Shown here: positions 2,634-39,456 of the stretch, piece by piece
Numbering within the stretch: position 1 is the first letter of the stretch
How the letters are laid out: each line of letters starts with the position of its first letter
Source: Bifidobacteriaceae bacterium
GTDB taxonomy: Bacteria > Actinomycetota > Actinomycetes > Actinomycetales > WQXJ01
NCBI GenBank assembly: GCA_031266115.1
Contig: JAISBQ010000088.1
Coordinates: forward strand, 1-42,731
Direction of reading: 5' to 3'
Length of the DNA: 42,731 bases
The notes under the pieces: generated by a model
The model's database searches: none
Seen by the model: the letters and a program-made list of their open reading frames with translations, nothing else
What the model was told of the DNA's origin: nothing
Translations under genes and position numbers: made by a program

Positions 2634-2881
2634 CAGATGTCGATCAACTCGTTGACAGCCATGCTGCGCCCGGCCTCAGCGTTGGCGCGGACTTGACGCA
2701 GATGACCCATGTTGCGTGCCGGCCCGTCGCGGCCCGGATCGGCGCGACAAGGATCGCGTTCGGACGGGTCGCTGAACTGCCGCGCCCTGCGTGCCGGGTG
2801 CTGCAGTTGCTTCTGTTCGGCGCGCTCGGCTTCGATACGTTGGGCGGCGCCGGTGAGGTTGCACAGTTGTACTGTCCACAT
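2633..2881 (-). CDS. Putative Phd/YefM-like antitoxin, possibly degenerate
   Basis: 82-aa ORF whose TGA overlaps the toxin ATG by 1 nt (TGATG at 2631-2635). The C-terminal HLRQVRANAEAGRSMAVNEL resembles the LLRSPANARRLM segment of YefM-type antitoxins. The N-terminal half is not recognisable. Confidence 0.4.
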   Translation of the reverse strand: MWTVQLCNLTGAAQRIEAERAEQKQLQHPARRARQFSDPSERDPCRADPGRDGPARNMGHLRQVRANAEAGRSMAVNELIDI

Positions 2882-2907
2882 TGCTCAACGAACGGTGGTC
2901 TTCGTCC

Positions 2908-3261
2908 ATGAGCACACCAGTCTTGACCTTCGGCCCGGAGGTCTTGCGCCAGTCCGGAGAGCCGTCTGCGTGGGAGGAGGCGCTGATCGCGTTCACGCGT
3001 CGGGCGGGCCAGTCCGGGCAGACCGTCGTGGTAAGCACCGAGGCCAACTTGCTCAGCCCCGAAGAGGCGGCGCAGCGGCTCATGGTGTCGCGCTCCACGA
3101 TCTCGCGGCGCATCGCGGACGGGGAGATTCAGGCGGTCAAAGTCGGCAATCGGCACCGCATCCCCTACTCCGAGGTTCGACGCGTGTGGCACGAGTCGAT
3201 GGACGCCATGGCCAAGGTCGTGGCCCCGGACATCGAGGCGGAACTGTTTGGGGATGAGTGA
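2908..3261 (+). CDS. Helix-turn-helix (excisionase/MerR-type) DNA-binding protein, likely antitoxin of the downstream PIN gene
   Basis: Start taken at ATG 2908; the track ORF begins at an upstream TTG at 2881. LLSPEEAAQRLMVSRSTISRRIADGEIQAVKVGNRHRIPYSEV is a typical excisionase-family HTH. Its TGA (3259-3261) overlaps the ATG (3254) of the PIN-like ORF. Confidence 0.65.
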   Translation: MSTPVLTFGPEVLRQSGEPSAWEEALIAFTRRAGQSGQTVVVSTEANLLSPEEAAQRLMVSRSTISRRIADGEIQAVKVGNRHRIPYSEVRRVWHESMDAMAKVVAPDIEAELFGDE

Positions 3262-3550
3262 GGGTTCCGCGCCACTGGTGTTCCTCGACGCGAACATCCT
3301 GGCCAAGCCGGTCACGCGCACGGAAGTTGATCTACGCGAGCAATGCCAGCGGCTACCGTGTGGCGTGGAGCCGGCACGTCGAGGACGAGGCGGACCGCAA
3401 CCTCCGGCCTCACCAGGCGCCGACCAGGGTCGCGCGTGAGGCCGCCCGGCTCGGTCTGACGGAGCAGGGCGTCGACGCCGAGCGGCACACGGCCATCGAC
3501 GCCTCGGTCGCGTGCACGTTCGCCACGACATCACACACACGGGTGTCGAC
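3254..3550 (+). pseudogene. PIN-domain toxin remnant, frameshifted and 3'-truncated
   Basis: ATG 3254 gives MSEGSAPLVFLDANILAKPVTRT, a PIN-type start with the first acidic residue in FLDAN. The sequence KLIYASNASGYRVAWSRHVEDEADRNL continues in the next frame, consistent with one extra base near 3323-3325. No in-frame stop occurs before the convergent giant gene ends at 3551, and the distal PIN acidic motifs are not seen. Confidence 0.5.
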
Positions 3551-6500: not shown

Positions 6501-9500
6501 AGGAACCCGAGGCTCCCGGCGTCTGCTCCCCACGCGGTGTGGGCGTCGACGCTGACCCCGTCGGCAGCTGTCGCGAGGACCGTCGGGGCCGACGCCATCA
6601 CCTGGCCGCCCTCCCGGCCCAACCGGACTCCCACCAGCGAACCGGTGGCGGCGAGCGGTCCAGTCCCGGCCGGATCGTCGGGGACCTCGGCGCTGGGCCA
6701 CACGATCGCCAGGTCCTCGACACGCCCACCGGTTCCTTCGACCAGGTGGAAGTCCATCGCCGGCGCCTGGCCATCCGCGGTCGCGGCAAGTGATTCGGGC
6801 AGGTCCGGACGCAGCGCACCCGTCGAATCGAATGCCGTCAAGCGAATGTCCGAGGTGACCTCACTCGTGTCGAGATCGCGATCTTCGTGATGCCACCCGA
6901 GAACAAACAGGTCCTCGCCACCTGATGTCGCCGTCGCGAGGCGCGGATTGGTGTCCGGCTGATCGTCGCTGGTGACCTGGATCGCTTGCACCACGCGGTT
7001 GAGACCCTGACCGGCCTGATCTGCGGTCAGTGCCGCCGCCGGATCGGTATCGACGATGGCGTACCGCACCTGTGTGCTCCCATCCGGCGATGTCGTGGTG
7101 TAGGCGACCGCCGCGGTGCCATCCGCGCCGATTTCCGCGTCGAGTCCCACCACGGGTCCATCCGACCCGGAATAGAGAACCTCCGTGGCTGGTGACCAGC
7201 CGCGGGCGGCGTCCCACGTCCGGTAGGCGATGGTTCCGTACGACCCGACCGTGGCTGCATCGGATCCCTGGGCGAGACCGGTCCGCCACGCCACGATGGC
7301 GCGACTCCCAGTCGTGGCCACCGCGGGCCCGACATCGGGGGCCGAATTGGCGGTCAACTGCTGGGTCCGCCACTGGCCGTCCTGACGCACCGAAGCGAAG
7401 ACCTCCGTGCTTTGGGCCATCGCGGCCACATCGCTCGGGGCCGTCTCGCCGGCGTAGTCCGCCGCACCACCGGTGGCGACACGCACCCATGCGGCCATGC
7501 CCGTTCCCAAGTCGCCGTCGAAGGCAAGCTGGGCGTCGCCGTACCCCCCGGCCGCGATCATGCCGTGATCGACATAGCCGGTCGCGGTCGATTCGGCCCA
7601 GGCGGCGCGCGTGCGGGTCGCATCGGTGGAGCCGAGGTCCGACAGGTAGACAAACCCGCCGCCATCGTCCGCCGCCACGGGCGCGGAATAGGGGTTGGCG
7701 TTCGTCTGAACGGCGGTGGGGGTCTCAGCAGCCACTGCGGAGACCATCTGCACTACGCGTGACGCGCGCGCAAGACTGGCCTGCGTGGGCCACGTGCGGG
7801 GTGCCAGGTCGAGGTAGTCGCGATTCTCAACCTCCCAGACACTACGCCCCATGGATGACGCGAGAGCGAATTGGCTCGCATAGGCCTGCGCCGCCGCCTG
7901 GGCCTCGGCGACGCTGCCGTCGACGTTACGCCCCGTTGTCGCTAACCAGTATTCGCTGATAAGGTCCCAATGGTTCCACCGCCACAGGTCCGAGGCGAAT
8001 TCCACTGAAAGGAGTGTTGCCGAGGCGCTGAAGATCAGGAACTTGACCTCGGCCTTGATCCCAAGCTCACCGTTCAATCGCAAAGAGTTTCCGTACCGCG
8101 TCCGGTCCGCGGAAGATGCCAAGGACGGGCGCATCAGCCAGGAATTGTTGTACTCGATGCCGATCCGGCCAAAGATCCCGATCTTTGCGCCCACAACACC
8201 CAAGTCGAACCCGAGACCGGCGAAGGCATCGATATACGCCGCCACCCGAAGACCCACGATGTGGTCGGTCACCGAGGAACGGGAGGGATCCGCCCATGCC
8301 CACGTCACCCCGTCCACGGTCGCCTGTTCGACAAGCCGGTGCGCCCCCCAATTGACAGCCAGCGACCCGCCGATCTCCAAGCTGACGGTGAGCGGAACCG
8401 GCCCGACTGTGAAGTTGTTGGTCCAGTTGTAGCTCATCGATCCGCCGGCCTCGAACCCGCCTCCCACGACTTCGAATCGCCATGCCGCCCTGGACACATC
8501 GTAAACGATCAGCCCTTCGAAATATCCGGACATTCCGAAGGAATAGTCGAGACCGCTCGTGCCACCATCCCGGATCGCCTCATCCAAGTCGCCATCGGGA
8601 TCATAATTGCCGCGGGCCATATCGATCTGATCCTTTTGGCTCGGCAGGAAGGAAAGGTCGACGGATTCTTCGGGGTCGTAGAAGATCGAGTGCGGACCCA
8701 CCTGCCAGCCAGGTTCGAGATTCGCGTGCTCAATCTCGCTGCCCAAGGACGTGGTGACCAACGTATTGAATTGGAACGGATCGTCTGTGGGACTGATCAG
8801 GACGTTGAGATTCTCGTTGCCGATCTCGATGTTCGACAAGAAATCCAATCCGTACTGAACGATCTTGTTGACACCGGAGGGCTGCGGCTTGGCAACGGAG
8901 CCGGCGACCATGGAGTCGGTGACCTCGGCCACGGCGTCCGTCGGATCGAGCACAAGCCCCACGGAATTGGCGACCGAGACCTCGGAGGTGAAAGACGCCA
9001 TCGTCCGCCCGTCGGGGTGGCCGAGCTTCACGGTCAATGAGCGCCGTTCGCCGGTCGGCATCCACAGCGTCGATTCGTTGATCACCAGGTCGGTCTCAAC
9101 CACCACAAAGGTCGAGAACGGGTGCTGGATGGCACGGGAGGTCTGGCTGGTTGGCCGCGTGCCGGTCTCATCCACCACCCACCCGCGCAGCGACGCACCG
9201 GGGGCGGGCAGGCCCGCGGTGTACATCGTGGAGCGGAGAGTCACTTCGCGCTGGCGATCCGAGACGCCGATGCTGCGAGCGCCCGTGGTCGAGAGCACCG
9301 TGCCACCCTCACCGAGCACCCACTGCCTCGCCAGCACGCCGAAGGTCCCCGCCCTCGCCTCGGCGAGTTGGACGGCCGCGGTAGTTTCGGGAACCCTGGC
9401 GGCCTGCCCCACGGCCTCGTCGACGGTGACGGTCTCGGGGCGGTACCGGTTGCCCGGCACCCGGATTTCGAAGGCATAGGACAGCACCGTGCCGGCCTCA

Positions 9501-12500
9501 AGTCCCACACCGTCGTCCGCCAGCGCGGAAACGTCCCACTCGACGGTGACGGTCCCCCGCCCATCGGAGCGCATCGCCTGAGGCTGACCCCGCGGGGCGA
9601 GTTGGGAGCCGGCAGCGTAACTGCCGTTCTTGTAGATCCCGCCATTGATGAGGACCTCACCCACATAGGGACCATCGGGGCCCGTGAGGACCAGCTTGAC
9701 CGTGGCGGCGGGTAGCAGCGAGAGCCGGTTGACCGGATACTGCTCCATCCGCGTCCAGTCCCGCTCACCCGACACCAGCGCCTGGGCGCGCAGGGTCCCA
9801 AGGTACGTTTCGCCATCGGACACCGACCGGGCCTTCACGTCGCTGGCGATGCCGTCGGCGACATAGGCGGCCAACGAGCCGGCCGCGTCAGTCCGCAGCC
9901 GATGGACCGTTCCCCTGGTGTCGGTGAACTCGACATCGGTCGCCACCTGCGGGGAGAACTGGAACAGATACAGCTTGTTGGTCAAGGTCTCCACGCTCAC
10001 GTCCAGGCTCACCTGGCTTCCGGTGGCGGCGTGCGTGGCCGTGATCGTGGTCTCGCCGTCGCGATGCCCGGCCAGCGGCAGATCCGTGGCCGGTGGCAGG
10101 GTCATCCCCGGGTTGGCCTCGACGTTCTTGAGCAGGGGTCCTTGGCGCACGTGGAGGGAGGCCACCGAGGTGTCGGACGATTCCCACGCCAGGCGGTCCG
10201 CGACGGCGCGCCACGCGTCGGAGGAGTAGTTGACGGACACCACCGAACGCAGCGACAGCCGGTCTTCGCGATATGCCCGGAGCAGTTCGGCGGAGGTCGC
10301 GGTGGCGGCGAAGCCGGCGTTCGATACCGTGGTCCGACCCTGGGGTGCCGCGCCATCCACAAGGATTTGCAGAGCCGACTGGTTGAACGATGTCAGCACG
10401 CTCGACGCGTAGACCCACGGGGCGCTGGCCGCGTTGCGAGACTTCAGACTCACCGTGTAGATCGACTTCAACTGAGAGGCCGGCAGGGGATCGATCGCCA
10501 GAGTGTAGGACCCGCCCGTGGGACCGACACCGTCGGCCAGGCGCCCGTCCTCAGCGAACGTGAACGTGCCTGGGGCACCAGCGCTGCCGGGTGTGAACAC
10601 GATCTGGCTGCCGGGCAGGACCACCCCATCACGGGCGATAGCGAAGTCGAAGCCGCCGGAATAGACCATGTCGAATTCCGTCATCGTCCAGGAGAAGCGG
10701 ACGTTGCCGTGGGAGTCGAGCACCGCGTCACCGTCCGCGTTGGAGGACAACTCCACGGTCACCGGTGGCGGCATCACCACGATGCCCCCCGCAGCGGTGA
10801 GCGTCTGGGACGGGGTGTACGGATTGACCACTCGCACCAGGAAGCTGTACGTGGGACCACCGAACGGGGAGACCTCGGTCACCAAGCCGGGTGGTACCGT
10901 CCAACTCGCCTCCCCCGGCACGGTGGCCGAGGCGATCGGTCCGAGGCTTCCCGTCTCCCCGAGGCGCGAAACCATGTCCACCTGGCTCACATCCCCGGCA
11001 AACACGTCCACGAGATAGTCGGTCGCTTTGGGCGGGATCGCCGTGGAATTCAGGTAGGCGACGTTAGAGACCCAGCGCAGGGTCGGGTCCTCGCCGCGTT
11101 TGATCGACATCGCCCCGGACGTTCCGGGAAGCCGCAGATAGGGCACGCCATCGGTGATGAGCTGAATCTCCGCGCCGGTGACGGTCACGTCCGCGTACGG
11201 CCCGTTCTTCGCGGTCAATACCGGGACCACGGTTCCTGGGGCGGCGCCAGTCGGGATGATCTCCCCCGTGGCCGGATCGATCGACGCGATCGTCCCGAAA
11301 TCGCTGTCCGTGCCCAGGAGCGACCATTCGAACTGATCGGGGGCGAGGTAGGTGGCCGCCGGCTTGTCGTGAGTAAAGGTGAGCTGCTGGATGGGATCGT
11401 CCGCGCGGATCGCGTACGGAGGCGCGCCCCACGCGTTCGGATACTGAATCTGAAGGTCATCCGCCTCCAGCAGGATGACCGCCTCGACGTCGAAATCCGC
11501 GTAATAGGGCGTGCCGACCAAGGCGCGCCATTCCGGCGCCGCCTCGGTGCCGTCGTTGATGAACAGCTCCACCCTCTTGCGGGCAAACGTCGGGGACGAC
11601 GTCACCGGGAAACTGGCCGTCAGCGCCGTGCCCTGGGAGTTCATGGACAGAGCGAACAGATGGTCCACCCCACCCACCGACGCCATGACGGACCGCACCC
11701 GGCCCTGGTTCGCCGCCGCCTCCGCGCGCAGCGGCCCCGATGGCGCGAGAGCAACGGTGACGCCCCCGTTCGTGGCCGTCGCGGGGAACTGGGTGTGGCT
11801 GACGCTAGTCTGGACGATCTCGGAGACCGGATCGCCCGGGAACGCGATCGCGCCCCTCCCCGACACGTCGACCGGTTCGCGGTCTGTTGTTGACACATTC
11901 ACGCCGTTGCGGTCCTGGCCAGTACTCTTGGCGCCCGTCCAGAGCCCCGTGAACTCCACCATCTGAGGGTCGGCCACCTCAAGGAAGAACGTGTGCTCTT
12001 CGGATGTCCCCGCGTCTTGAGTGGGCAATTCAATGGATCTCTCGTCGATCGTGGGGAGTATGAGACGCGGATCCTTGACGGGCTCGGAATAGACGGCCGT
12101 GAGGGGCATCAGGCTACCGGTCGGATACGTCCCAGCGACGGCCCGGACGGAGACCAAGGATGGTAGGGATTCCACCACTGAGACTTGCAGCTGGGAGAAA
12201 TTGATGTTCCATCCGGTATGGCTTCGGTCTGGGGTCTGGGCGACCGCGGTCTCCAGCCCGACATCTAGGAACAGGGACGGGTTGGGGCAGGATGAGTTCT
12301 GGCCGGCCGCGGCGCGGACGAAGGCCGAGGGGAAGTCCAGTGGCTCGTTTCTTCCCACGTCGACAGACCTGGGCCCGCGGGCGGACGTTGGCATGGAGGC
12401 GTCGAGCGACTGGCAGTAGGTCGAGAACCCCGGACCGTTCGCGAGCCCAAACGTCGCATCAATCGTGGATGCTCCGGAGATGAGGTGCCAATCGTCGAAG

Positions 12501-13708
12501 TCCAGTAGCAGCCGAGACACCTCGTTGCGGGAGAATTTTCGCCGGACGTCCGCGGACAGCGGACCGAAGTTGATCTGGTATCGCATCGCGCCCTGTGACG
12601 TGGCACCCGAGTAGTAGAAGACTTCGTTGCTGGCGTCGATGGAGGCCCGTCCGTCCGTCATCGTCATCTGCAACGTCTTGGGGCTCGAATAGCTCGTGGC
12701 CCCGCCGGGCTCGGCGATGAGCCCTCGGGCAAGAACGGCCTGGGCCGGCACGATCTCCTCGAATTGTTGCTGGGCGTACTCAGGGTCGCTGCGTGAGACC
12801 GTGCCGTGGACGGAGGCGTACGTCTTCCCGTCGGTGAACAGTGCCCCGCGCAGCCTGGAGAACTCGACCAGGAACGACTTCTTGCCATCCCAGACCTCGG
12901 TGATCGGGTCTGTGGGTGCCAAGGCGGGTTCGGCGGCGGTGAATGTCAGGGTTTCGGTGAGGTTGGTGGTACCGGAGAGGAACTCGATGGGGAAGGCCTC
13001 ACCCGAACGCTCGATCGCGGTCGTAGTACCCAGCCTGCCCGTGTAGTGGGTCCGGTATCGGGCCGATCCGTCGATGGGGCGCACCATGACGCTCACATCC
13101 TGCGCGGGGACGGCGGACAGGGTCAGCGTGATGGTCTTGGACCCGCCAGGCGCAAGGTCCAGGTCGCCCGTGATGGCCACGGTCAGGTCCTGCTGGGCGT
13201 AGCCCTCGTCCCGCGGTTCGGCCGCCGCCGCGATCTGGAGACCGCTGGACTCGATCTGGGACAACAGCGAGGACACCGAGGACCGGTGGGCGTCCGTGAG
13301 TGGCTTGTCGGTGAAGTAGGTCTCGTTCAGCCGGGCCACCTCGGACTCGATCTCGAACATCGTCTTGATGTCGCGGAGCGCCACTGCGGCGCCATCCACG
13401 GTCGCGGTCCGCGTCAGGTCCGTGGCGCCATCGAACACGAGCGTCTCCAGGGCGCCCGCCGCGTACGCGCGACCATCCACCACGGCCTCATGGACGATGG
13501 CGCGCCCCGCCTCGTCGACGAGCCCGAGGCTGCGGAGCATCTCCACGCTCGCGGAAAGGCTGGCCCCACCCTTCGCCAGGGCCGGCGACGTGGGCGCGGC
13601 CCACGCGAGACCGTCGAGGCTGGTCACCCCCACGGTGAGGGCGAGCGCACCCGCCAATGTTGAGGCGAGAGCGCGGTGGGCATGGGAAACAACACGTCGG
13701 TGGAACAT
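3551..13708 (-). CDS. Giant secreted multi-domain surface/adhesin-like protein (3385 aa)
   Basis: Single uninterrupted 10158-nt ORF with GGAGA 9 nt upstream of ATG 13708. It has an N-terminal Sec-type signal, and its recognisable modules are listed as separate features. No LPXTG-type sorting signal, lipobox or C-terminal TM segment was seen. Confidence 0.9.
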   Translation of the reverse strand: MFHRRVVSHAHRALASTLAGALALTVGVTSLDGLAWAAPTSPALAKGGASLSASVEMLRSLGLVDEAGRAIVHEAVVDGRAYAAGALETLVFDGATDLTRTATVDGAAVALRDIKTMFEIESEVARLNETYFTDKPLTDAHRSSVSSLLSQIESSGLQIAAAAEPRDEGYAQQDLTVAITGDLDLAPGGSKTITLTLSAVPAQDVSVMVRPIDGSARYRTHYTGRLGTTTAIERSGEAFPIEFLSGTTNLTETLTFTAAEPALAPTDPITEVWDGKKSFLVEFSRLRGALFTDGKTYASVHGTVSRSDPEYAQQQFEEIVPAQAVLARGLIAEPGGATSYSSPKTLQMTMTDGRASIDASNEVFYYSGATSQGAMRYQINFGPLSADVRRKFSRNEVSRLLLDFDDWHLISGASTIDATFGLANGPGFSTYCQSLDASMPTSARGPRSVDVGRNEPLDFPSAFVRAAAGQNSSCPNPSLFLDVGLETAVAQTPDRSHTGWNINFSQLQVSVVESLPSLVSVRAVAGTYPTGSLMPLTAVYSEPVKDPRLILPTIDERSIELPTQDAGTSEEHTFFLEVADPQMVEFTGLWTGAKSTGQDRNGVNVSTTDREPVDVSGRGAIAFPGDPVSEIVQTSVSHTQFPATATNGGVTVALAPSGPLRAEAAANQGRVRSVMASVGGVDHLFALSMNSQGTALTASFPVTSSPTFARKRVELFINDGTEAAPEWRALVGTPYYADFDVEAVILLEADDLQIQYPNAWGAPPYAIRADDPIQQLTFTHDKPAATYLAPDQFEWSLLGTDSDFGTIASIDPATGEIIPTGAAPGTVVPVLTAKNGPYADVTVTGAEIQLITDGVPYLRLPGTSGAMSIKRGEDPTLRWVSNVAYLNSTAIPPKATDYLVDVFAGDVSQVDMVSRLGETGSLGPIASATVPGEASWTVPPGLVTEVSPFGGPTYSFLVRVVNPYTPSQTLTAAGGIVVMPPPVTVELSSNADGDAVLDSHGNVRFSWTMTEFDMVYSGGFDFAIARDGVVLPGSQIVFTPGSAGAPGTFTFAEDGRLADGVGPTGGSYTLAIDPLPASQLKSIYTVSLKSRNAASAPWVYASSVLTSFNQSALQILVDGAAPQGRTTVSNAGFAATATSAELLRAYREDRLSLRSVVSVNYSSDAWRAVADRLAWESSDTSVASLHVRQGPLLKNVEANPGMTLPPATDLPLAGHRDGETTITATHAATGSQVSLDVSVETLTNKLYLFQFSPQVATDVEFTDTRGTVHRLRTDAAGSLAAYVADGIASDVKARSVSDGETYLGTLRAQALVSGERDWTRMEQYPVNRLSLLPAATVKLVLTGPDGPYVGEVLINGGIYKNGSYAAGSQLAPRGQPQAMRSDGRGTVTVEWDVSALADDGVGLEAGTVLSYAFEIRVPGNRYRPETVTVDEAVGQAARVPETTAAVQLAEARAGTFGVLARQWVLGEGGTVLSTTGARSIGVSDRQREVTLRSTMYTAGLPAPGASLRGWVVDETGTRPTSQTSRAIQHPFSTFVVVETDLVINESTLWMPTGERRSLTVKLGHPDGRTMASFTSEVSVANSVGLVLDPTDAVAEVTDSMVAGSVAKPQPSGVNKIVQYGLDFLSNIEIGNENLNVLISPTDDPFQFNTLVTTSLGSEIEHANLEPGWQVGPHSIFYDPEESVDLSFLPSQKDQIDMARGNYDPDGDLDEAIRDGGTSGLDYSFGMSGYFEGLIVYDVSRAAWRFEVVGGGFEAGGSMSYNWTNNFTVGPVPLTVSLEIGGSLAVNWGAHRLVEQATVDGVTWAWADPSRSSVTDHIVGLRVAAYIDAFAGLGFDLGVVGAKIGIFGRIGIEYNNSWLMRPSLASSADRTRYGNSLRLNGELGIKAEVKFLIFSASATLLSVEFASDLWRWNHWDLISEYWLATTGRNVDGSVAEAQAAAQAYASQFALASSMGRSVWEVENRDYLDLAPRTWPTQASLARASRVVQMVSAVAAETPTAVQTNANPYSAPVAADDGGGFVYLSDLGSTDATRTRAAWAESTATGYVDHGMIAAGGYGDAQLAFDGDLGTGMAAWVRVATGGAADYAGETAPSDVAAMAQSTEVFASVRQDGQWRTQQLTANSAPDVGPAVATTGSRAIVAWRTGLAQGSDAATVGSYGTIAYRTWDAARGWSPATEVLYSGSDGPVVGLDAEIGADGTAAVAYTTTSPDGSTQVRYAIVDTDPAAALTADQAGQGLNRVVQAIQVTSDDQPDTNPRLATATSGGEDLFVLGWHHEDRDLDTSEVTSDIRLTAFDSTGALRPDLPESLAATADGQAPAMDFHLVEGTGGRVEDLAIVWPSAEVPDDPAGTGPLAATGSLVGVRLGREGGQVMASAPTVLATAADGVSVDAHTAWGADAGSLGFLFVGSKATGQVETVPGTDGEPSASFPVTVAGIYAATGTFTSEFEVDSVLPSYQDLAVNADLPVGLTVHNTGASTITTLRVEFIDPGASQGVVARTLDDFGLAPGASTAVNVFYPVGETIVSPGYRVVADFADGTSHAVDGDLYLTFNDVGIGDIAVIKEADGERDIAVPLYNASAYPLAGSGRTVKVGFFADAGVDSPALPTISVSDDATLAAIDAGAYVTTLAEPLDVAEWLDAHGGGAEIPEDGIELYVKAWIEEDGKAIRETGDANNLTRVTFASLAASGTDSGVAVDTQMAADGSQTVAQVEVRNLSLAPRTGGSLMVSLVDDAGQVVESRWLSGSVGTLDLGPEQTVEGEVRFSGQGSEIETQYIADVAEVPYGLASLAMTGIAPEILAGGQTQYSYATVNLATTSVTARANNPAAIVEILGDGAVLGSGEGSATAVVPIGRASADGASRQTRIQVRVTAAGDPRGVATYAVAVDNRRDDGLVDLRLRSDPEPDGEWIGGSGSGGDPVAVMAWVAGPRGDWSARDLFYRLDDGPPVRVDGFDGWPVTIVSVGDGRHQVRAWVSDEAEQTLGEQTLDLRIDREGPTALESPTVRSADGTALREVGSVIVADGRQLEVSGRFADPLSGLAFVNLVAEGWVRQPLTLVDGASGLYRGLVPADVRGPLEVEVGDRAGNVTRFHVGWIAQPARGIVLTPGEDHDFGRAEAGYRQIGGGTVTLINTGHLATGPLTVQMTGANPASFAATPVSIADVPAGGRVTLQVAPVPGLAGPSVHTATMEVRGEGVSASLGLRFEVCAAAAGPRDGVDAPVAAKVTRLASPLKTLYVAKGTSVRPPIAISGTGTGVAKAALTWSSSKPSVATVDSTGRITAKATGTTTVRAKAASGVSLKLRVTVVSEARGLTSLKAKTGTTMRVGRAARITVTPRPAKATNLTVTFTSSKPSVIAVDKAGRLTAKKAGKATIRIKARGKAVSIPVRAVAG
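3554..4054 (-). other. Two C-terminal Big_2 (bacterial Ig-like group 2) modules, strongly basic
   Basis: LTWSSSKPSVATVDSTGRITAKATGTTTVRAKA and VTFTSSKPSVIAVDKAGRLTAKKAGKATIRIKA are classic Big_2 signatures (S.v.tvd..G.vta...G.a.i.a). These last 167 aa are K/R-rich, in contrast to the acidic bulk of the protein. Confidence 0.75.
4105..4425 (-). other. ASH / choice-of-anchor-D-type Ig module
   Basis: VLTPGEDHDFGRAEAGYRQIGGGTVTLINTGHLATGPLTVQMTGANPASFAATPVSIADVPAGGRVTLQVAPVP...ATMEVRGEG. Confidence 0.45.
5050..5310 (-). other. Cadherin-like beta-sandwich module
   Basis: QYSYATVNLATTSVTARANNPAAIVEILGDG...IQVRVTAAGDPRGVATYAVAVDNR fits the Y.v.V...v.v.a....a.v.i.g...i.V.a.dg..tY.i.v.R consensus I recall for the bacterial cadherin-like domain. 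Confidence 0.45.
5400..6345 (-). other. CARDB-like Ig modules (about three)
   Basis: DLPVGLTVHNTGASTITTLRVEFID, DIAVPLYNASAYPLAGSGRTVKVGFF and VAQVEVRNLSLAPRTGGSLMVSLVDDAGQVV all fit the v.v.N.G...a....v.l pattern of CARDB modules. Confidence 0.45.
6450..7650 (-). other. Beta-propeller-like repeat region
   Basis: Recurring short strand motifs: AAWVRVATGG, VFASVRQDGQWRTQQL, RAIVAWRTG, TIAYRTWDAARGWSPATEV, TAAVAYTTTSPDGSTQVRYAIVD, LFVLGWHHED, LAIVWPS. The assignment is tentative. Confidence 0.35.
7960..8560 (-). other. Unassigned beta-strand-rich Gly/aromatic core segment (~200 aa)
   Basis: GLDYSFGMSGYFEGLIVYDVSRAAWRFEVVGGGFEAGGSMSYNWTNNFTVGPVPLTVSLEIGGSLAVNWG...GLRVAAYIDAFAGLGFDLGVVGAKIGIFGRIGIEYNNSW...LRLNGELGIKAEVKFLIFSASATLLSVEFASDLWRWNHWDL. 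It shows alternating hydrophobic/polar runs separated by Gly turns. No family recognised. Confidence 0.5.
12800..13190 (-). other. Calx-beta-like module
   Basis: DLTVAITGDLDLAPGGSKTITLTLSAVPAQDVSVMVRPIDGSA...DGKKSFLVEFSRLRGALF follows the Calx-beta pattern (v.f.aGe..k.i.v.i..d...E..E.F.v.Ls...ga.l). Coordinates are approximate. Confidence 0.45.
13598..13708 (-). other. Sec signal peptide of the giant protein
   Basis: MFHRRVVSHAHR (basic), ALASTLAGALALTVGVTSL (hydrophobic), then GLAWA/AP as an AxA-like cleavage site. Confidence 0.7.
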
Positions 13709-13857: not shown

Positions 13858-15345
13858 TCAGGAACCGTCTTTGTCAGGAGCGTCATCCAGAATGGCGCGA
13901 ATCCGCTCCAGCCGCTCGGCGACCTGGCGTTCAAAGCCCCGGCCCGTAGGTGTGTAGTACCGCCGGCCGGTCAACTCTGGTGGCGCGTAGCGTTGAGCAG
14001 CGATTCCGTGAGGTTCGTCATGCGCATAGACGTATCCTTCGCCGTGTCCGATGCGCTGCGCACCGGCATAGTGGGCGTCGCGCAGGTGCGGTGGCACGAG
14101 CCCAATCCGGCCGGCGCGAATGTCGGCCAGCGCGGCGTCGATCCCTAGGTAGGCGGCGTTCGACTTGGGCGCCGTCGCCAGATATACGACGGCTTCGGCC
14201 AATGGAATCCGTCCCTCCGGCATGCCGATGAGTCCGATGGCCTGGGCGGCGGCCACCGCGATGGGCAGGGCCTGAGGATCGGCCATGCCGATGTCCTCCG
14301 CCGCCAGGACCACGATCCGGCGGGCGATGAACCGTGCGTCCTCGCCCGCCTCGATCATCCGGGCCAGGTACGCCAGCGACGCGTCCACGTCCGAGCCCCG
14401 CACCGACTTGATGAACGCCGAGATCACGTCGTAATGCTGGTCGCCGTCCTTGTCGTACCGCACGGCGGCGATATCGACAGCCCGGCGGACCGTCGCCACA
14501 TCGATCACCGGCGGCTCGCCGGCCGACTCGCTCCCGGAGTCCCGGTCCCCGGCGCCCCGGTCCCCGGCGGCATCGGAGGCGGCACCCGCCGCCGCCTCCA
14601 GGATGGTCAACGCTCGCCTGGCGTCGCCGCCGGCCAGCCGAATGAGTTGGTCGCGGGCCTCACCGTCCAGGGCGACCATCCCCGCGAGGCCGCGCTCGTC
14701 GCTCACGGCACGATCGATCAACAGCCCCTGATCGGCATCGTCCAACGGTTGAAGTGTCAGTAGGAGGGACCGGGACAGCAGCGGCGAGATCACCGAAAAC
14801 GACGGGTTCTCGGTGGTCGCGGCGATCAGCGTCACCCAGCGGTTCTCGACGGCGGGCAGCAGCGCGTCTTGCTGGGACTTGGAGAACCTGTGAACTTCGT
14901 CGATGAACAAGACGGTCTCCCGCCCGCCGGCCGCCAAGGCTCGCTTGGCGACGGTGACCACGTCTCGGATGTCCTTGACACCGGCGTTGACCGCGCTGAG
15001 CTCTGTGAACGCTCGCCCCGACCCCCGCGCCACGAGGTAGGCGAGGGTGGTCTTCCCGGTTCCCGGAGGCCCCCACAGGATCACCGACGATGGCGCCGCC
15101 CGCCCCTCCCCGCCCGCCACCAGCCGCCGCAGGGGCGCCCCAGGGGTGAGTAGGTGCCGCTGCCCAGCCACCTCATCCAGACTGCGCGGCCGCATCCGTA
15201 CGGCAAGCGGCGACCGGGGGTCGACATCCGGCAACCCGACACCGTCGCGGCCCACCGCATCGAAGAGATCCACCCGCCAAGCGTAGATCGGCGTGTGCAT
15301 GCGCGAGCCCGTGCCATGACGAGCTTCCGTGAGACACCCTCGCAC
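13858..15345 (-). CDS. rarA: Replication-associated recombination protein A (AAA+ ATPase)
   Basis: DLFD...[21 protein letters not shown], Walker [16 protein letters not shown], Walker [10 protein letters not shown], and a MgsA-type C-terminal helical domain. The true start may be the internal ATG at 15300. Confidence 0.9.
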
Positions 15346-15361: not shown

Positions 15362-16573
15362 TCACCGACGCAGTGCCATCATGGGGTCAACCCGACCGGC
15401 TCGGAGCGCGGGAGCCAGGCCCGCGAACAAACCCACTCCTGCGCCGAGTATCGGGGCCAATGCGGTAATTCTCGGGTCCATGACCGGTGTCCACTCCAGG
15501 GCCCAAGAGGCCACAACCACCGACAGAGTGCCGATGCTCGCGCCGACCAGACCCGCTAGCGCGCCCACCGACACAGTCTCGGCTATGACCTGGGCGACGA
15601 TGTGCCGAGGCCGAGCACCCATGGCGCGACGCAGACCAAGCTCCCCCATGCGCTCGACCACCGACAAGAGCGTCGCGTTCGCGATCGCCGCCGCCCCGAT
15701 GAGCACGGTGATTGCCGTCAACGCCAAGAAGAGCGCAGTCATCGACGTCGCAACAGTGGTTTCCACGCGGGGAGGGTCGGCGGGAGGAAGCACGGCTATC
15801 GACTCCGGGGCATCGGGTCGCAACGCCAGGGAAAGCAACCTGCTCACCTGGTGAGCGGCTCCAGGATCGACGTCAACCACCATTGAGGCCGGAGCATCCG
15901 CCGACGGCCGTCCGAACGACTCGGCAGCAACGGCCTCGGGAATCGCGGCCCCGGCCAACACCTCGCCACGCCGTTCCACGTCAGCGAGAATGCCGACCAC
16001 GACATAAGCCGAGCCCGCGAGGTACACCGTCGCCCCGGCGTCGTCAACGTCCAGGCCCAAGCGCTGGGCCGCGGCCGATCCCAACACCGCGGCATGAATC
16101 CCGGATTCGGCTTCGAACCGTGCCAATCCCCTGCCCGAGGCAAAGGTCGGGTGTAGGGCGGCGAGATATCCGGGTGACACCGCAGTAACAGGGATCATTT
16201 GCGGGCCTGTGAAAGCGTCGATCGCAGTGACCGCCTCGGCGAGTGTCCCGGGGATCGGCCAGGCCACGCCGCATGCCCGCACCCCGGCAAGACTGCTCAC
16301 CCTGCCCTCAGCATCCTGGGGGAACGAGTACACCGAGCCGTCCGGATCCGCCTGCCCAGCGTCGTTGACATACACCTCGGTTGCCTTCAGAACGGAGAAG
16401 TCCTCCGAGATTTGCCCGGACGCCGTCGCGGTCAAACCCAAGACCGCGACGAATGCCGCGATTCCCAACGCGGTGCCCGACATCGTCCCGATCATCCGTG
16501 AGGGTCGCCCGCCCAGTGCTGCCACAGCCTCGGAAAGGACAGCACCCCACACCGCCCGGCTCGCAGCGCTCAT
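15362..16573 (-). CDS. MacB-type (FtsX family) ABC transporter permease
   Basis: 403 aa with an N-terminal TM, a ~230-aa extracytoplasmic domain and a C-terminal three-TM FtsX module ([19 protein letters not shown]...[15 protein letters not shown]). Its ATG overlaps the ATPase stop (ATGA at 16570-16573). Confidence 0.85.
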
Positions 16574-17334
16574 AGTCGCTTCAGGCCGGGTGTCGCAAGC
16601 GGTGAATATAGGTGTCTATCTACACATCCATCCGTTGTCGTGGTTACTCGCCGCGCACGCCCCGCTGCCGCAGGATCGTGCGTGACCATGACCACAGCCG
16701 ATCCCTGGGAATTCAAGACATCCAGGATGTCGAGAATCTGTTCAGTGGATCCCAAATCGAGATTCCCGGTGGGTTCATCGGCCAGCAGCAGCGCAGGTTC
16801 GTGGACGATGGCGCGCGCAACCGCCACCCGCTGCCTCTCGCCTCCAGACAGTGTTCCCGCCAGCGCATCCTTGCGCCCCACCAATCCAACCCGCTCCAAC
16901 GCAACCGCCGCACGATCCGCACGCAGGCGTCTCGGCACGCCAAGGTACGCCAATCCGAGAGCGACGTTCTCTTCAGCGGTGCGGTCCGGCATTATGTGAT
17001 AGTCCTGAAACACAAAACCGAAGGTGTACGCACGTGGTGCGCTCCGCTCGCGCTCACGCAGTCCGCTAGTATCGCGGCCCCGGATCCGCACAGCGCCGCT
17101 CGTGGGCGTGTCCAGCAGGCCAAGGATGTTGACAAACGTTGACTTCCCGGAGCCAGACGGCCCCATGATCGCCACATAGTCCCCCTCCCCGATGGCAGCG
17201 TTCACCTCCCAGAGCGCCCTCACCTCGGGAGGCCCCATGTAGACCCGAGACACTGCGACAGCCTCAACCAGCGGTTCGGGCGCGCCAGCGATCAGCGACC
17301 CAGTCTCCTCGCAACCCCGTTGTCGGCCGCTCAC
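16570..17334 (-). CDS. ABC transporter ATP-binding protein (MacB/LolD-like)
   Basis: Walker A GPSGSGKST, signature LSGGERQRVAVARA, Walker B LLLADEPTGNLD and H-loop VTHD. ATGA overlap with the adaptor stop at 17331-17334. Confidence 0.9.
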   Translation of the reverse strand: MSGRQRGCEETGSLIAGAPEPLVEAVAVSRVYMGPPEVRALWEVNAAIGEGDYVAIMGPSGSGKSTFVNILGLLDTPTSGAVRIRGRDTSGLRERERSAPRAYTFGFVFQDYHIMPDRTAEENVALGLAYLGVPRRLRADRAAVALERVGLVGRKDALAGTLSGGERQRVAVARAIVHEPALLLADEPTGNLDLGSTEQILDILDVLNSQGSAVVMVTHDPAAAGRARRVTTTTDGCVDRHLYSPLATPGLKRL

Positions 17335-18770
17335 CCAACCATCACCTTGTCGCCCACGTCCAACGTTCCGGGCACCTCAGGCGCAACCTCCGCCGTTCCA
17401 TCTACCACCATCCCCACGTGGACCGCGACCTCTCTCATAGAGCCTTCATCAGCGGACACAGTCACGGACTGCACACCGTCCGCGCCATCATGGACCGCTA
17501 TTAGAGGGACAACGAGGACCGGGCCGTCAGTAGACCCAAGGGTGACTGTGACCCGAACATCCAATCCCGACCAACTCACATCAAGTGGGGCGTCCGTGTC
17601 CACCACCAACGGATAACCCGACAGCTGCTGCACTACGTCCTCCGCAGACTCTCCCAAGGACGAGCCAGCAGGCCTGAAGACACCCACCTCGCCCACCGTC
17701 CCACCTGCTTCACGAGCGTTCACATCATCGTCAACGCGAACTCTTAGCCCGGCTCGCAGCCCTCCCTGCGACCCTTGTGGGACCACGGCCTGAATCCTTG
17801 GGACTCCCGTGATGAGCGTCGCGACCTGACCCCCTGCGGCGACAATGTCATCCCCGACGGCAGAAGTCACTTCCCGAACGATCGCGGGTAGCTTCGCCAC
17901 GAAGACAATCTCCGCGAGGGGAAGACATACCCCTGCAGCACTCTGTACCGCCGCCAAGGCTGCCTCCGCTTCGGCAAGGTCAGCCTTGCTGTATCTGACT
18001 TGCTGGCGCATTTGCGCGATATCAGCTGCCGACGCCGTCGCTCCGCTTCCAGGTGTCGAATCGCTCTCTGGTGCGCCAGCCGTGGCCTCTCCTTCCAATT
18101 TTGATTCCACCCTTGCCTCAATCATCGCCGAAAGCGTCGCACGATCACTCACAAGCTTACGCTCGGCACTGGTCACTGTCGCTTCTGCAGCCTCAATGAA
18201 CGAACCAGTCTCCGCGAGCAGATCCTCGGTAGTCCACGCCTTGTAACCCGCCGACCGATAAAACTCCCTCACAGACCTCTGCGTCGACACATCAAACGAC
18301 CCAGTCTCCCCTTCGCCATCAAGGTGACCTAGGTCCACCAGTGCCTTCTGCACCTGCCGGACATCAACACCTTCGTCACCGGGAACTATATCGCGATATG
18401 CCGGGACCGTACCAGGAAGGACGAACAACGGCCGACCCGCCACTCCCGCAACTACTCCCCCAGACGCCACACTCTCCCCAGCCTCAACAGGCAATCTCGT
18501 CACAATCCCGCGAAGCCTCTCCGACTGGACCTTCACGACGACAGTATCCGACTCCACCACCGTTCCCCGCACCACAAGGGACGAGGTCAGGTCCCGAATC
18601 GCGACCGGTTCGGTCAACGGGGCCTGCGTCGGGGGCCGTGATGACGCGAGTTGCTGGGCAGGCGATCGAATCGCCAGCCCAGCAATATGCCCGCCAAGAG
18701 ACACAGCCAACGCGCTCAAAGCTACCGTCAACAACACGCGGTCCCGCTTCACTATCCCCATCGCTCTCAA
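17331..18770 (-). CDS. HlyD/MacA-type membrane-fusion adaptor with embedded peptidoglycan-binding domain
   Basis: N-terminal TM (VLLTVALSALAVSLGG). PG_binding_1-like segment GDEGVDVRQVQKALVDLGHLDGEGETGSFDVSTQRSVREFYRSAGY. Coiled-coil stretch (AEATVTSAERKLVSDRATL...IAQMRQQVRYSKADLAEAEAALAAVQ). Beta-barrel-like C-terminal part. ATGA overlap with the upstream lipoprotein at 18767-18770. Confidence 0.75.
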   Translation of the reverse strand: MRAMGIVKRDRVLLTVALSALAVSLGGHIAGLAIRSPAQQLASSRPPTQAPLTEPVAIRDLTSSLVVRGTVVESDTVVVKVQSERLRGIVTRLPVEAGESVASGGVVAGVAGRPLFVLPGTVPAYRDIVPGDEGVDVRQVQKALVDLGHLDGEGETGSFDVSTQRSVREFYRSAGYKAWTTEDLLAETGSFIEAAEATVTSAERKLVSDRATLSAMIEARVESKLEGEATAGAPESDSTPGSGATASAADIAQMRQQVRYSKADLAEAEAALAAVQSAAGVCLPLAEIVFVAKLPAIVREVTSAVGDDIVAAGGQVATLITGVPRIQAVVPQGSQGGLRAGLRVRVDDDVNAREAGGTVGEVGVFRPAGSSLGESAEDVVQQLSGYPLVVDTDAPLDVSWSGLDVRVTVTLGSTDGPVLVVPLIAVHDGADGVQSVTVSADEGSMREVAVHVGMVVDGTAEVAPEVPGTLDVGDKVMVG

Positions 18771-19759
18771 CCCGTCTGGGCCGGTGAAGCCGGCATCCCT
18801 CTCAGGTAGCTCTCGATCTCTCCAACCAGCTCGTCCAGGGCACCGCGGTTCGCATCGATATATTCCTGGTCATAGGCTGCTTGTATCCCCGCTGCTCTTC
18901 CTATCAGGTTCGTTTCAATCTTACACTCCACGTCGACGACCGCCGTAGCACTCGAGGCCTCGCCACCATAACTGCTCGAGATGGCATCAATCGGACTCGC
19001 ATAGTCGAGTCCCTGGCCATTCATACACTCCGACCAATCGCTCACGGCCTCTTCGTATCGAGAATCACCCGCGGCCAGTACCGGTCCCCCGTCAGGGAGT
19101 CCACTTGCTTCCAGAAGAATCATAGGCGTATCACCCCCGGGAAGTGATTCGAGTACTTCGCCTTCGCAGGAACTCACCACACTCTGATCACTATCGGTAC
19201 CCGCACGCATATTCAAGCCATCGGGAGTCACAGGAGGTCGGGCGTACCCGTAGATAGGTGCATTCACAGGGTCGAAAAAGCCCCAAAGAGAAGACCGAAC
19301 AACCCGATCGCGCACCCGCCCCTCGATGAACGAGACAACGTCAGACGAGTCATCGTATCCGTAAGACGCTGCGACGCCAGCTCTTGCGAGACACTCAGTC
19401 ACGGCCGCTACACGCGCGACTTCGATCGCCACTATCTGCGAGGCTGTCGGCAAATAGGCGTCCATTGGGCGAACAACCTGCGCTGGATCTGTCACAACAC
19501 TCGGAGGAGCCGTGAGAACCGGCTGCGACCCCACGGGCGCCGAGCCCGTCGGCGTCGTACCAGACCACCTGGAACTATCGCCTTCGCTGCACGCTCCCAC
19601 CAGCAAGCCGAGGCCAAGCGCAGCGGGCAACAGCACAGCGCGCGTTAGCAAGCGCCCGGGCGCCCCCGATAAGCGCCCGCGCACCCCACCGACCGTCTCA
19701 CGCACTTCACCAACTCCTCCGCGTCGAGCCACTGCTATTCGCAATACCGTGCCATCCAT
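18767..19759 (-). CDS. Secreted lipoprotein, unknown function (four-Cys), first gene of the ABC module
   Basis: Signal peptide with lipobox LLVGAC. The mature part has two Cys pairs (TECLARAGV...SSCEGE and WSECMNGQGL...VECKIE). The start codon is uncertain because of a long basic N-region. Confidence 0.75.
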   Translation of the reverse strand: MDGTVLRIAVARRGGVGEVRETVGGVRGRLSGAPGRLLTRAVLLPAALGLGLLVGACSEGDSSRWSGTTPTGSAPVGSQPVLTAPPSVVTDPAQVVRPMDAYLPTASQIVAIEVARVAAVTECLARAGVAASYGYDDSSDVVSFIEGRVRDRVVRSSLWGFFDPVNAPIYGYARPPVTPDGLNMRAGTDSDQSVVSSCEGEVLESLPGGDTPMILLEASGLPDGGPVLAAGDSRYEEAVSDWSECMNGQGLDYASPIDAISSSYGGEASSATAVVDVECKIETNLIGRAAGIQAAYDQEYIDANRGALDELVGEIESYLRGMPASPAQTG

Positions 19760-19805
19760 CCTAGTTCACAACAATCCTATCTATCAACGCAGAGCCGGAA
19801 CAGTG

Positions 19806-20156
19806 CTAATCCACATGGATCTGCACTATCCTTGCGAGAGACTGGGGAAATGGATCGCTCGCCCATTTTCCGAAATACCTCGTATATCTGGATGAATTCC
19901 AGTAGTACGCGAAAGAACCAGCGTTGTTGCCAGCTCGAAATGCACCAACATTGTAGAGCTCGACCAAGACGTTTCCGCTGTTCGCCCAGCAGGTGGTTGC
20001 ATCGGAATAGAGAGTGAGCCAGTCGTTGCGCGAGCCGCATGGGTTGATGCGATTGATCGCGTAGGCGCCGTTCGCGCCTAAAGCAATAGACAAGAAAGAG
20101 GCGAGCAACGCCCCGACGAAGAGTCTGAGCGCTGAGCGGGTTAGCCGTTGTTTCAT
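19806..20156 (-). CDS. Small Sec-secreted two-Cys protein, probable Streptomyces killer-toxin-like (SKLP) / AFP1-like family
   Basis: 116 aa with GGAAGGA 7 nt upstream of ATG 20156. A 33-aa signal peptide ends AYA, leaving an 83-aa mature protein starting INRINPCGSRNDWLTLYSDATTCWANSGNVLVELYNVGAFRAGNNAGSFAY. The INR..C, TxC[FW]AN[AS]G and GNN motifs match the ~85-aa Streptomyces killer-toxin-like/antifungal proteins as I remember them. Local G+C is low: 46 percent by hand count over 19861-19960. Confidence 0.55.
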   Translation of the reverse strand: MKQRLTRSALRLFVGALLASFLSIALGANGAYAINRINPCGSRNDWLTLYSDATTCWANSGNVLVELYNVGAFRAGNNAGSFAYYWNSSRYTRYFGKWASDPFPQSLARIVQIHVD

Positions 20157-20214
20157 GGTTTGATCCTTCCGCGAGACAGTAATCTGGGTCCCAATGGTCG
20201 CCTGTCAGAGCCGA

Positions 20215-20241
20215 CGCTCCGACACTGCCGCCTTCGGAGCG
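20215..20241 (-). terminator. GC-rich hairpin between the two small-protein genes
   Basis: cgctccga / tcggagcg form an 8-bp perfect stem with an 11-nt loop. There is no clear U-tract, so function is uncertain. Confidence 0.2.
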
Positions 20242-20307
20242 CCCACACGCGCACAGAGGAATTGCCAGGCTTGGTGACGAGGGCGCCGTCGGCCAAGACG
20301 CCAATAG

Positions 20308-20658
20308 TCATAGGATAGTGATATTCAGGACGGTGTTAAGGTCACGGCTATAGGTGACCGCACTCCACTTCGCAAAGTGAGCAATAACAGGAGTGTTTCG
20401 GGAATTGAAGCTGAAATACCCGGCATTGTTTCCGCTTCTGAATGCGCCTATATTGTAGAGCCTGACCGAAACGTTTCCGCCGTTCGCCCAGCAGGTGGTT
20501 GCATCAGAATAGAAGATCAGCTAGTCGTGACGCGAGCCGCACGGGTTGATACGGTTGATCGCCTGGGCGCTGGCCAGACCGACCGACGCCGAAAGAACGA
20601 ACGCGAGAGTTACCGAGAGTAAGACCCGTATGGATCGCGGTGATCGCAGTGCTGCCAT
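20308..20658 (-). pseudogene. Paralog of 19806-20156 interrupted by an in-frame amber codon
   Basis: GAAAGG lies 7 nt upstream of ATG 20658, and a 33-aa signal peptide ends AQA. My translation is INRINPCGSRHD-TAG-LIFYSDATTCWANGGNVSVRLYNIGAFRSGNNAGYFSF...LNITIL-TGA. The TAG at 20521-20523 sits exactly where copy 1 has Trp (TGG). The frame is otherwise intact through the stop at 20308. Confidence 0.7.
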
Positions 20659-20707
20659 AGCCAAGCCTTTCGATGTTGACGCTGGGTCGTCATGCCCACT
20701 GGTGGCA

Positions 20708-20737
20708 AATGTAGTTCTCGACACGAGTCGGCGTCAA
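20708..20737 (-). promoter_or_regulatory. Candidate sigma-A-type promoter upstream of the small-protein/ABC cluster
   Basis: On the minus strand: TTGACG (20737-20732), an 18-nt spacer, then TACATT (20713-20708), about 50 nt upstream of ATG 20658. Confidence 0.3.
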
Positions 20738-21264
20738 GGGGGTCAGAGTACCCATCGGCTCCCGCGCGTGGCGAATCTGGTCCGTGCCTTGTCGTTGATC
20801 TCCGACCCGAAACCCATTCTTGACTTCGATCCCTGTCACCGAGAGTACCGGGGTTGGCGCTCGGTGCGATGGTGACAGACCTGATATCCCCTGCGGACGT
20901 CGGATTTGGGCAAGTGGTGCCAGGGTGAGGTGGCATGGGCCGTTCATGTCGTGGGCCCTGGTTCGTGGAGCGTTTTCCCTGGTCAACGCTCCTATTCACT
21001 AGGCTGCGTGGGCCAGCATCTGGATCGAGGTAGGTTCGCGTCCTCAGGGCGCACGACATGGATACCCCGCGAGGTGGCGGCCGGGTTGCGTTCGCGCCCG
21101 GCGTCCGGTCGCCGCAACACTCGGGGTCGCGCGCATTCGTCACGTGATCGCCAAGAGGACCGATTCCGTCGAACTCGGGCCCTCTCCGCCCGGAGTCATC
21201 TGACGCGCGAGCCCGGGACCCCGGTCACCGTCCAGGCACACCAGGGCCCATTAGGGTAGAAGGC

Positions 21265-38762: not shown

Positions 38763-38831
38763 GCAGCAGTCCTCCAGTAGGAACGAACATGTGTACTAGA
38801 CCACGCTACCAGCCAAGGCCACCAGGCAGAT

Positions 38832-38921
38832 GTCATCTCCCCCGGCGCGCCGCCCGTTGGCAGACCTTCGCGCGGCGAAGCCCCACACGCACAAGTCATC
38901 TCCCCCGGCGCGCCGCCCGTT
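38832..38921 (-). repeat. 27-bp direct repeat pair (38832-38858 and 38895-38921) duplicating the ruvC 3' end including its stop codon
   Basis: gtcatctcccccggcgcgccgcccgtt occurs twice, 63 bp apart. The right copy covers the last codons plus the TGA of ruvC, and the left copy lies in the ruvC-ruvA spacer. A small hairpin cttcgc-cgc-gcgaag sits between the two copies. Confidence 0.85.
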
Positions 38922-39450: not shown

Positions 39451-39456
39451 CGACAC

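Follow-up and report, generated by a model that had tools for sequence, protein, structure and literature searches.

An AFP1/SKLP-like secreted protein gene and its lipoprotein and MacB-type transporter neighbours on a Bifidobacteriaceae contig

The small secreted protein and the AFP1/SKLP family

To our knowledge, AFP1 and SKLP are the only members of the PF09076 family that have been assayed, and for 25 years they have been regarded as isolated antifungal curiosities whose mechanism is unclear. AFP1, from Streptomyces tendae Tu901 (PDB 1g6e/1gh5), is a chitin-binding antifungal protein (PMC10796067). Here, we describe a gene for a small secreted protein on the minus strand of a 42,731-bp stretch of DNA, hereafter the window, which is a complete contig of a metagenome-assembled genome (MAG) labelled Bifidobacteriaceae bacterium. 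The product, deposited at NCBI as hypothetical protein LBK59_02490 (MDR1293820.1, Bifidobacteriaceae MAG), is almost certainly a member of the same family of single-domain, beta-gamma-crystallin-like secreted proteins. The family itself is already known; what is new is a member in an unusual taxon, which extends this small family into a host-associated-looking, non-Streptomyces actinobacterium. Family membership alone is a modest result, and the interesting lead is the operon context. The gene and its parts are located as follows (aa, amino acids; nt, nucleotides).

19806..20156, minus strand: AFP1/SKLP-family (PF09076) secreted protein gene (the small gene), assigned from Pfam, profile, model and conserved positions
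20058-20156, minus strand: predicted signal peptide, codons 1-33
19809-20057, minus strand: mature 83-aa domain
19806-19808, minus strand: stop codon of the small gene
20164-20170, minus strand: Shine-Dalgarno-like GGAAGGA, 7 nt upstream of the ATG at 20156, read from the sequence

The small gene starts with ATG and encodes a 116-aa precursor, and the translation given in a first-pass annotation of this DNA, which had been made from the sequence letters, is identical to the open reading frame (ORF) 19806..20156 on the minus strand. The N-terminal 33 residues of the precursor comprise a basic n-region and a hydrophobic core, with predicted Sec cleavage at GAYA/INR (the slash marks the junction). 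Homologs of the small protein have an equivalent A-x-A/I-x-R junction, and the PDB chains of AFP1 and SKLP begin at the aligned position. A Sec-type signal peptide, a predicted mature start at INR and a mature domain of ~85 aa starting with I-x-[RH], as in the family, are directly supported at the level of sequence comparison. The mature domain contains exactly two Cys (C7 and C23), a TTCWANSG motif and a GNN at residues 43-45, 20 residues after C23. The two-Cys layout, INR start, TxC[FW]AN[AS]G motif and GNN about 20 aa further on, all listed in the first-pass annotation, were thus found in the mature protein; as for the C-terminal "I.I.V" that it also listed, the hydrophobic alternating strand is present, whereas the exact pattern is not, since the real end IVQIHV reads closer to V.I.V. 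An overlapping ORF in another frame (19777..20304, minus strand, 175 aa) was rejected because every homolog matches the 116-aa frame. Scanning for promoters and terminators returned weak consensus matches only, and a single terminator-like site was disregarded because it falls within the signal-peptide coding region.

The sole Pfam match of the small protein in a scan at E-value (E) <= 10 is PF09076 (Crystall_2), the family that holds SKLP and AFP1, with 25.7 bits for the full-length and 28.3 bits for the mature protein, above the gathering cutoff of 25 bits. A precomputed PF09076 match is also carried by the public database, while the peptidase inhibitor I36 family (PF03995) was not matched in the same Pfam scan and no match was obtained in NCBIfam. 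With the single sequence as query, a PDB search returned AFP1 (1g6e) at a marginal E of 0.018, and a word-indexed homolog search recovered only the protein itself. An exhaustive HMMER search among 1.84 billion proteins, using a two-sequence profile built from the small gene and its neighbouring paralog, yielded 96 cluster representatives at E <= 1e-3. Nearly all of the inspected relatives (P0002-P0030) consist of a signal peptide and one ~80-aa domain, with few longer or two-domain proteins. The family consensus reads I-x-R-V-x-C ... TTC[WF]ANAG ... V-x-L-Y-x-V ... SGNNAG ... I-x-I, and PF09076 is matched by 83 of the 94 aligned sequences. Built from all 94, the family profile aligns with AFP1 (1g6e, E 2.4e-17, residues 2-86) and SKLP (1f53, E 5e-10, residues 1-83), in both cases spanning the whole chain end to end with both Cys aligned. 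Across the 125 unique domains of the family, C23, G28 and G43 never vary, and N45 and C7 occur in 124 and 113 of them, respectively; judged from this alignment, the motif positions of the small protein are family-defining and not a matter of chance.

AlphaFold supplied with the family alignment produced an all-beta model of nine strands (predicted local distance difference test, pLDDT, 96.5; predicted template modelling score, pTM, 0.84), whereas the model from the single sequence alone was unusable (pLDDT 37.7). A Foldseek search of the PDB with this predicted model placed AFP1 first, with a template modelling score (TM) of 0.84/0.81, a root-mean-square deviation (rmsd) of 1.8 A and 26% identity, while SKLP (1f53) gave a TM of 0.65, an rmsd of 3.0 A and 22% identity. 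The predicted fold is a single-domain two-Greek-key beta-sandwich. Taken together, the Pfam match, the family profile and the superposition of the model on AFP1 (TM 0.84) and, less closely, on SKLP (TM 0.65) uphold the killer-toxin-like/AFP1 identity that had been proposed from the letters of the sequence, with the small protein nearer to AFP1 than to SKLP. Next after AFP1 in the Foldseek results came the UmbB1 chains of the Umb1 particle (8w20 B/D/F, 8w22 B), which are likewise small secreted actinobacterial proteins, with TM ~0.75 normalised to the query and 7-8% sequence identity. UmbB may share the AFP1/SKLP fold, and the Umb paper mentions no crystallin or AFP1 resemblance (PMC11062931). 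The WmKT/HM-1 killer toxin (1wkt) and the microbial crystallins 3hzb and hahellin (2kp5) share the general two-Greek-key fold (TM ~0.5) and have no detectable sequence relation to the small protein, in which the canonical Ca-binding motif of the crystallins is not evident. HM-1 has several disulfides. As a toxin directed at the wall, it inhibits the synthesis of beta-1,3-glucan in yeast (PMC12715866).

The likeness to AFP1 covers the Pfam family, the Sec signal peptide, the INR start, the Cys pair, the C[WF]ANxG and GNN motifs and the length of ~85 aa; SKLP shares the family, the Cys pair and the GNN motif and is more distant from the small protein than AFP1 is. A rough neighbour-joining (NJ) tree separates a TCWAN branch, which holds the window copies, from a C[FY]AN branch with AFP1 (LCFAN) and SKLP. 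The small protein differs from AFP1 in this branch position, in its host (a Bifidobacteriaceae MAG instead of Streptomyces) and in being linked to lipoprotein and MacB-type pump genes, while the sampled sequence nearest to AFP1 comes from a solo gene. The label of the MAG bears out the non-Streptomyces context noted earlier, and the statement that the gene lies in the lowest-GC DNA (GC, guanine plus cytosine) also holds: the small gene has a GC of 0.536 versus 0.661 for the whole window, and the 1-kb segments 19501-20500 and 20001-21000 have the minimum of the table (0.579). A genome scan with the family alignment gave three loci, so the taxonomic distribution is thinly sampled. A truncated AFP1-like gene at the contig end of the uncultured actinobacterium RUG078 (L003, 4667-4747) was observed as another non-Streptomyces carrier; this contig stops short of the place where a partner gene would be visible.

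Gene order in the window and in other genomes

Downstream of the small gene, four genes follow on the same strand:

18767..19759, minus strand: lipoprotein with lipobox LVGA/C, 330 aa; the start codon may lie downstream of 19759
17331..18770, minus strand: membrane-anchored adaptor-like protein, 479 aa, with a PG_binding_1 domain; a homolog is present in the Streptomyces locus L006
16570..17334, minus strand: ATPase of an ATP-binding cassette (ABC) transporter, MacB/FtsE/LolD type; 4-nt overlap between its start and the stop of the gene upstream
15362..16573, minus strand: MacB-type (type VII) ABC permease with MacB_PCD and FtsX domain matches

The last three of these four genes have 4-nt start/stop overlaps. 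The lipoprotein has no relative in Pfam, NCBIfam, PADLOC or the PDB, and its family searches revealed no recognisable catalytic domain or hydrolase signature, while its alignment contains many invariant polar residues. No HlyD-type domain and no PDB relative were detected for the 17331..18770 product, whose presumed role as a periplasmic adaptor is deduced from its position. The nearest solved relatives of the permease are the Streptococcus pneumoniae MacAB-like pump (5xu1) and MacB (E 1.5e-14 to 5e-13). The ATPase is equally close to MacB, FtsE and LolD. Compared with MacAB-like pumps (S. pneumoniae Spr0693-0695, 5xu1; MacB 5nik, 5lil), the window has a homologous permease with MacB_PCD and FtsX and a separate ATPase, but an adaptor-like protein with PG_binding_1 and without a detected HlyD-type domain.

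The cluster, which spans 15362-20658 and includes a tandem paralog of the small gene, stands out by its composition. Third-position GC is 0.59-0.75 in all six cluster genes versus 0.78-0.87 in the flanking core genes, and the rest of the window consists of core chromosomal genes such as ruvB, secDF, relA/spoT, hisS, aspS and rarA. The uniformly low values therefore suggest that the cluster was acquired as one unit, with rarA (13858-15345) on one side of the insertion and the MMPL/aspS genes on the other.

The small gene and the lipoprotein gene are also found together elsewhere. Among the 12 evaluable loci that were reached through the small protein, the lipoprotein gene is next downstream in eight. 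The closest homolog, P0002 (55% identity), belongs to a tandem AFP1-like pair on metagenome contig L004, where a 296-aa lipoprotein with 41% identity (E 4e-49) to the window lipoprotein begins 3 nt after the pair. The small-gene/lipoprotein pair is likewise kept, with stop and start adjacent or overlapping, on two Actinomycetota MAG contigs (L001, L002), so that the stop-start distance is 3 nt or less than zero throughout L001, L002 and L004. In Streptomyces sp. NPDC059835 (L006), the full order is present, namely an AFP1-like gene, a 313-aa lipoprotein, a 508-aa adaptor-like protein (32% identity to the window counterpart, E 6e-42), an ABC ATPase and a MacB/FtsX permease, and the same five-gene order occurs in the metagenome loci L012 and L014. 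The pair of small gene and lipoprotein was further found in Kitasatospora azatica (L007), S. shenzhenensis (L009) and Streptomyces sp. NPDC002676 (L058). Linkage to the lipoprotein occurs in both deep branches of the family, TCWAN and C[FY]AN.

The lipoprotein was also used as a starting point. A word-indexed homolog search with its profile returned four proteins, and a metagenome scan with its alignment gave 44 loci, which were then mapped with hidden Markov models (HMMs). In these 44 loci, the lipoprotein very often adjoins the adaptor/ATPase/permease trio, and an AFP1-like gene precedes the nearer lipoprotein homologs (L012, L013, L014, L019, L024). Two diverged small-gene/lipoprotein pairs stand in tandem at L024 (3625-6469), with 37% identity between the small proteins and 44% between the lipoproteins, which suggests that the pair duplicates and diverges as a unit; this 10-kb contig contains no transporter. 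Most of the linked loci (L001, L004, L007, L009, L024, L058) have no transporter near the lipoprotein.

Upstream of more distant lipoprotein homologs, the slot is occupied by different small secreted Cys-containing proteins (L027, L028, L029, L030, L031, L032, L034, L037, L039 and L040/L041). Most of these share the motifs C..C.YYNS..G / VKNNAAS / YYNS.Y.G / N..AS. The slot protein of L031 is a PF03995 Inhibitor_I36 protein, and the others have no Pfam match. It was considered whether the slot proteins are hidden relatives of the AFP1 family, and this found no support: hhalign detected no relation, no PDB match was found and Pfam returned only I36. A regulator of the XRE/HTH_31 type flanks the module in L004 (12112-12675), L006 (5164-5646) and L007 (5318-5779), on the minus strand in each case and with 45-50% mutual identity; no such regulator was found in the window. 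A full-text literature search of incomplete coverage found no paper mentioning PF09076 or the linkage of small gene and lipoprotein.

Proposed role and alternatives

Nisin producers are protected by NisI and NisFEG, a case in which a surface lipoprotein and/or an ABC transporter is encoded beside an envelope-directed antimicrobial, and lactococcin 972 is a Sec-secreted beta-sandwich bacteriocin whose operon includes an FtsX-type ABC transporter. By analogy, the locus described here would follow the same gene logic of producer protection; neither system is homologous to the small protein or the lipoprotein. A lactococcin 972-type system was not recognised in the window, where the score of the ATPase on TIGR03608 (the lactococcin-972 ABC group) is 182.6 bits, short of the cutoff of 254.85, and the small protein matched PF09076 only in Pfam and nothing in NCBIfam.

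The best overall explanation, to which we assign a rough probability of 0.55, is a wall-glycan-binding secreted antagonist together with a cognate protective or handling module. The precursor would be exported by Sec and cleaved by signal peptidase, releasing the 83-aa domain, which one disulfide (C7-C23) may stabilise. Outside the cell, this domain would bind a glycan of the cell wall (chitin in the case of AFP1) without enzymatic action, thereby disturbing the wall growth of a competitor. The small gene heads a conserved module. The lipoprotein would be the cognate partner of the small protein, most probably protecting the producer in an immunity-like way or handling the small protein on the outside of the membrane, with help from the pump, much as NisI and NisFEG together protect nisin producers. 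For the separate parts, the odds that the small protein is an extracellular wall-directed antagonist appear to us evenly balanced, and the assignment of the lipoprotein as its protective partner is tentative.

Chitin binding and antifungal or antibacterial activity of the small protein may be expected from its family membership, while the gene cluster hints that the producer's own cell envelope plays a part in what the family does. If the protein were purely antifungal and directed at chitin, such a module should be superfluous, which hints that the target is shared with the producer's envelope; the targets would in that case be bacterial instead of, or besides, fungal. It has been reported that functional AFP1 was not obtained in Lactococcus lactis, which was taken as a hint of antibacterial activity (PMC10796067). 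This failure points toward a bacterial target, in the same direction as the module context. The conserved operon partners suggest that the earlier reading of the protein as an inter-microbial weapon is incomplete.

Several observations weigh against this explanation. The PF09076 score barely exceeds the cutoff (25.7 and 28.3 versus 25 bits), and the taxonomic label comes from the MAG annotation alone. The small gene stands solo in four Streptomyces loci (L008, L010, L055 and L057), so the lipoprotein is not an obligatory partner, and one of them, L010, holds the nearest relative of AFP1. Allowing for the close relationship of L001, L002 and L004, about six independent lineages are linked versus four solo. 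The lipoprotein also occurs without an AFP1-like gene, beside other small secreted proteins or none, and a 300-aa lipoprotein in which so many residues are conserved might be an enzyme instead of an immunity factor.

Among the alternatives, the one that survives best, which we hold to be unlikely though clearly worth weighing, assigns the small protein to the producer's own envelope machinery, where, acting on the cell's own peptidoglycan together with the lipoprotein and a mechanotransmitter of the MacB/FtsX type, it would serve as ligand, regulator or substrate-recognition subunit. FtsEX systems control wall hydrolases, and the PG_binding_1 domain of the adaptor-like protein, the equal closeness of the ATPase to FtsE, LolD and MacB and the location of the module among core genes all agree with such a role. 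So does the wide spread of the lipoprotein and transporter unit, also without AFP1-like genes, where another small secreted protein fills the slot. However, the lipoprotein has no hydrolase signature, four loci carry the small gene alone, and the patchy, island-like spread and low third-position GC fit an accessory and not a housekeeping function; moreover, the two characterised family members are extracellular inhibitors of fungal growth (AFP1, PMC10796067; SKLP, from general knowledge).

A second alternative takes the conserved order of small protein, lipoprotein, adaptor and MacB-type ABC genes, together with the relation of the permease to MacB structures, to mean that the pump exports the small protein as its cargo. 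Once translocated by Sec and folded, the protein would be expelled through the thick wall by the transporter and its adaptor, with the lipoprotein as chaperone or loading factor. MacAB-TolC expels the enterotoxin STII from the Escherichia coli periplasm, and MacB-type pumps (type VII ABC transporters) are generally known to pick up their substrates at the outer face of the membrane. We consider it decidedly improbable, as most linked loci have the lipoprotein without a nearby transporter, AFP1 and SKLP came from culture supernatants, and the nearest sampled relative of AFP1 is a solo gene.

It is scarcely probable, in our view, that the small protein inhibits a secreted or surface enzyme and that the lipoprotein is the enzyme under its control. 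The model for this is SMPI, a metalloproteinase inhibitor of family I36 with a beta-gamma-crystallin fold, and an Inhibitor_I36 protein (PF03995) is indeed encoded upstream of the lipoprotein homolog in the distant locus L031; UmbB1, the second-best structural match, acts by protein-protein binding, and the many invariant polar residues of the lipoprotein would suit an enzyme. Nevertheless, the AFP1 family has no sequence relation to I36 or to the other slot proteins, the lipoprotein has no recognisable catalytic domain, and AFP1 is reported as a chitin binder and not as an inhibitor (PMC10796067).

Finally, an UmbB-like adaptor of an umbrella-toxin-type particle, although suggested by the structural similarity to UmbB1, is hardly credible and was rejected, because UmbB bridges UmbA and UmbC and these partner genes are absent from the window (no UmbA, trypsin-like/lectin, or UmbC, ALF-repeat, gene was found, and the 3385-aa neighbour shows Ig-like domains only), sequence identity to UmbB1 is 7-8%, the family profile misses UmbB in the PDB, and the small protein is without the N-terminal extension that UmbB inserts into UmbA (PMC11062931).

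Returning to the wall-glycan-binding antagonist with its module, a broader and more speculative proposal would be that AFP1/SKLP-type proteins are the variable effector of a widespread, so far undescribed actinobacterial module, which also comprises a cognate ~300-aa surface lipoprotein and often a peptidoglycan-anchored MacB-type pump, and not primarily stand-alone antifungals; this is possible at best. If it were true, the envelope of the producer itself would be what the lipoprotein and pump protect or service, and AFP1/SKLP-type proteins would be protein bacteriocins exported by Sec and aimed at related wall-building bacteria, or else ligands that remodel the envelope. The lipoprotein would then found a new family of immunity or partner proteins, and distant versions of the module would fill the slot with unrelated small Cys-containing secreted proteins. 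The uncharacterised lipoprotein family is common beside type VII ABC transporters in Actinomycetota, and the translationally coupled lipoprotein with its recurring MacB-type pump provides a testable handle on the target of the family and on producer protection.

Interrupted paralog and other features of the window

Directly upstream of the small gene lies its paralog:

20308..20658 from ATG (region 20308-20724), minus strand: tandem paralog, 50% identity to the small protein
20521-20523, minus strand: in-frame TAG of the paralog, replacing mature residue 13

The paralog has a coding capacity of 116 aa from the ATG at 20658 and its own GAAAGG ribosome-binding site, and its signal peptide ends ASAQA, followed by INRINPCGSRHD. 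Residue 13 is aromatic (F/Y/W) in 105 of the 125 family domains, and TAG is derivable from TGG or TAY by one base change; the family motifs beyond the TAG are all intact. The paralog is probably a very recent pseudogene or the result of a sequencing or assembly error in the MAG. The two window copies pair with each other in the rough NJ tree.

No tRNA and no Rfam feature were detected in the window. About 540 nt at 20725-21264, separating the paralog from the MMPL gene, are devoid of recognisable genes, and the ORFs there have no Pfam match at E <= 10. A 3385-aa secreted protein is encoded at 3551-13708 (minus strand), of which only C-terminal Big_2/Ig-like domains were recognised, in line with its NCBI name of Ig-like domain-containing protein. 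Other sizeable ORFs without a Pfam match are 173-1093 (minus strand), 2644-3540 (minus strand) and 38830-40209 (plus strand), the first of which lies in a second low-GC stretch (~0.60).

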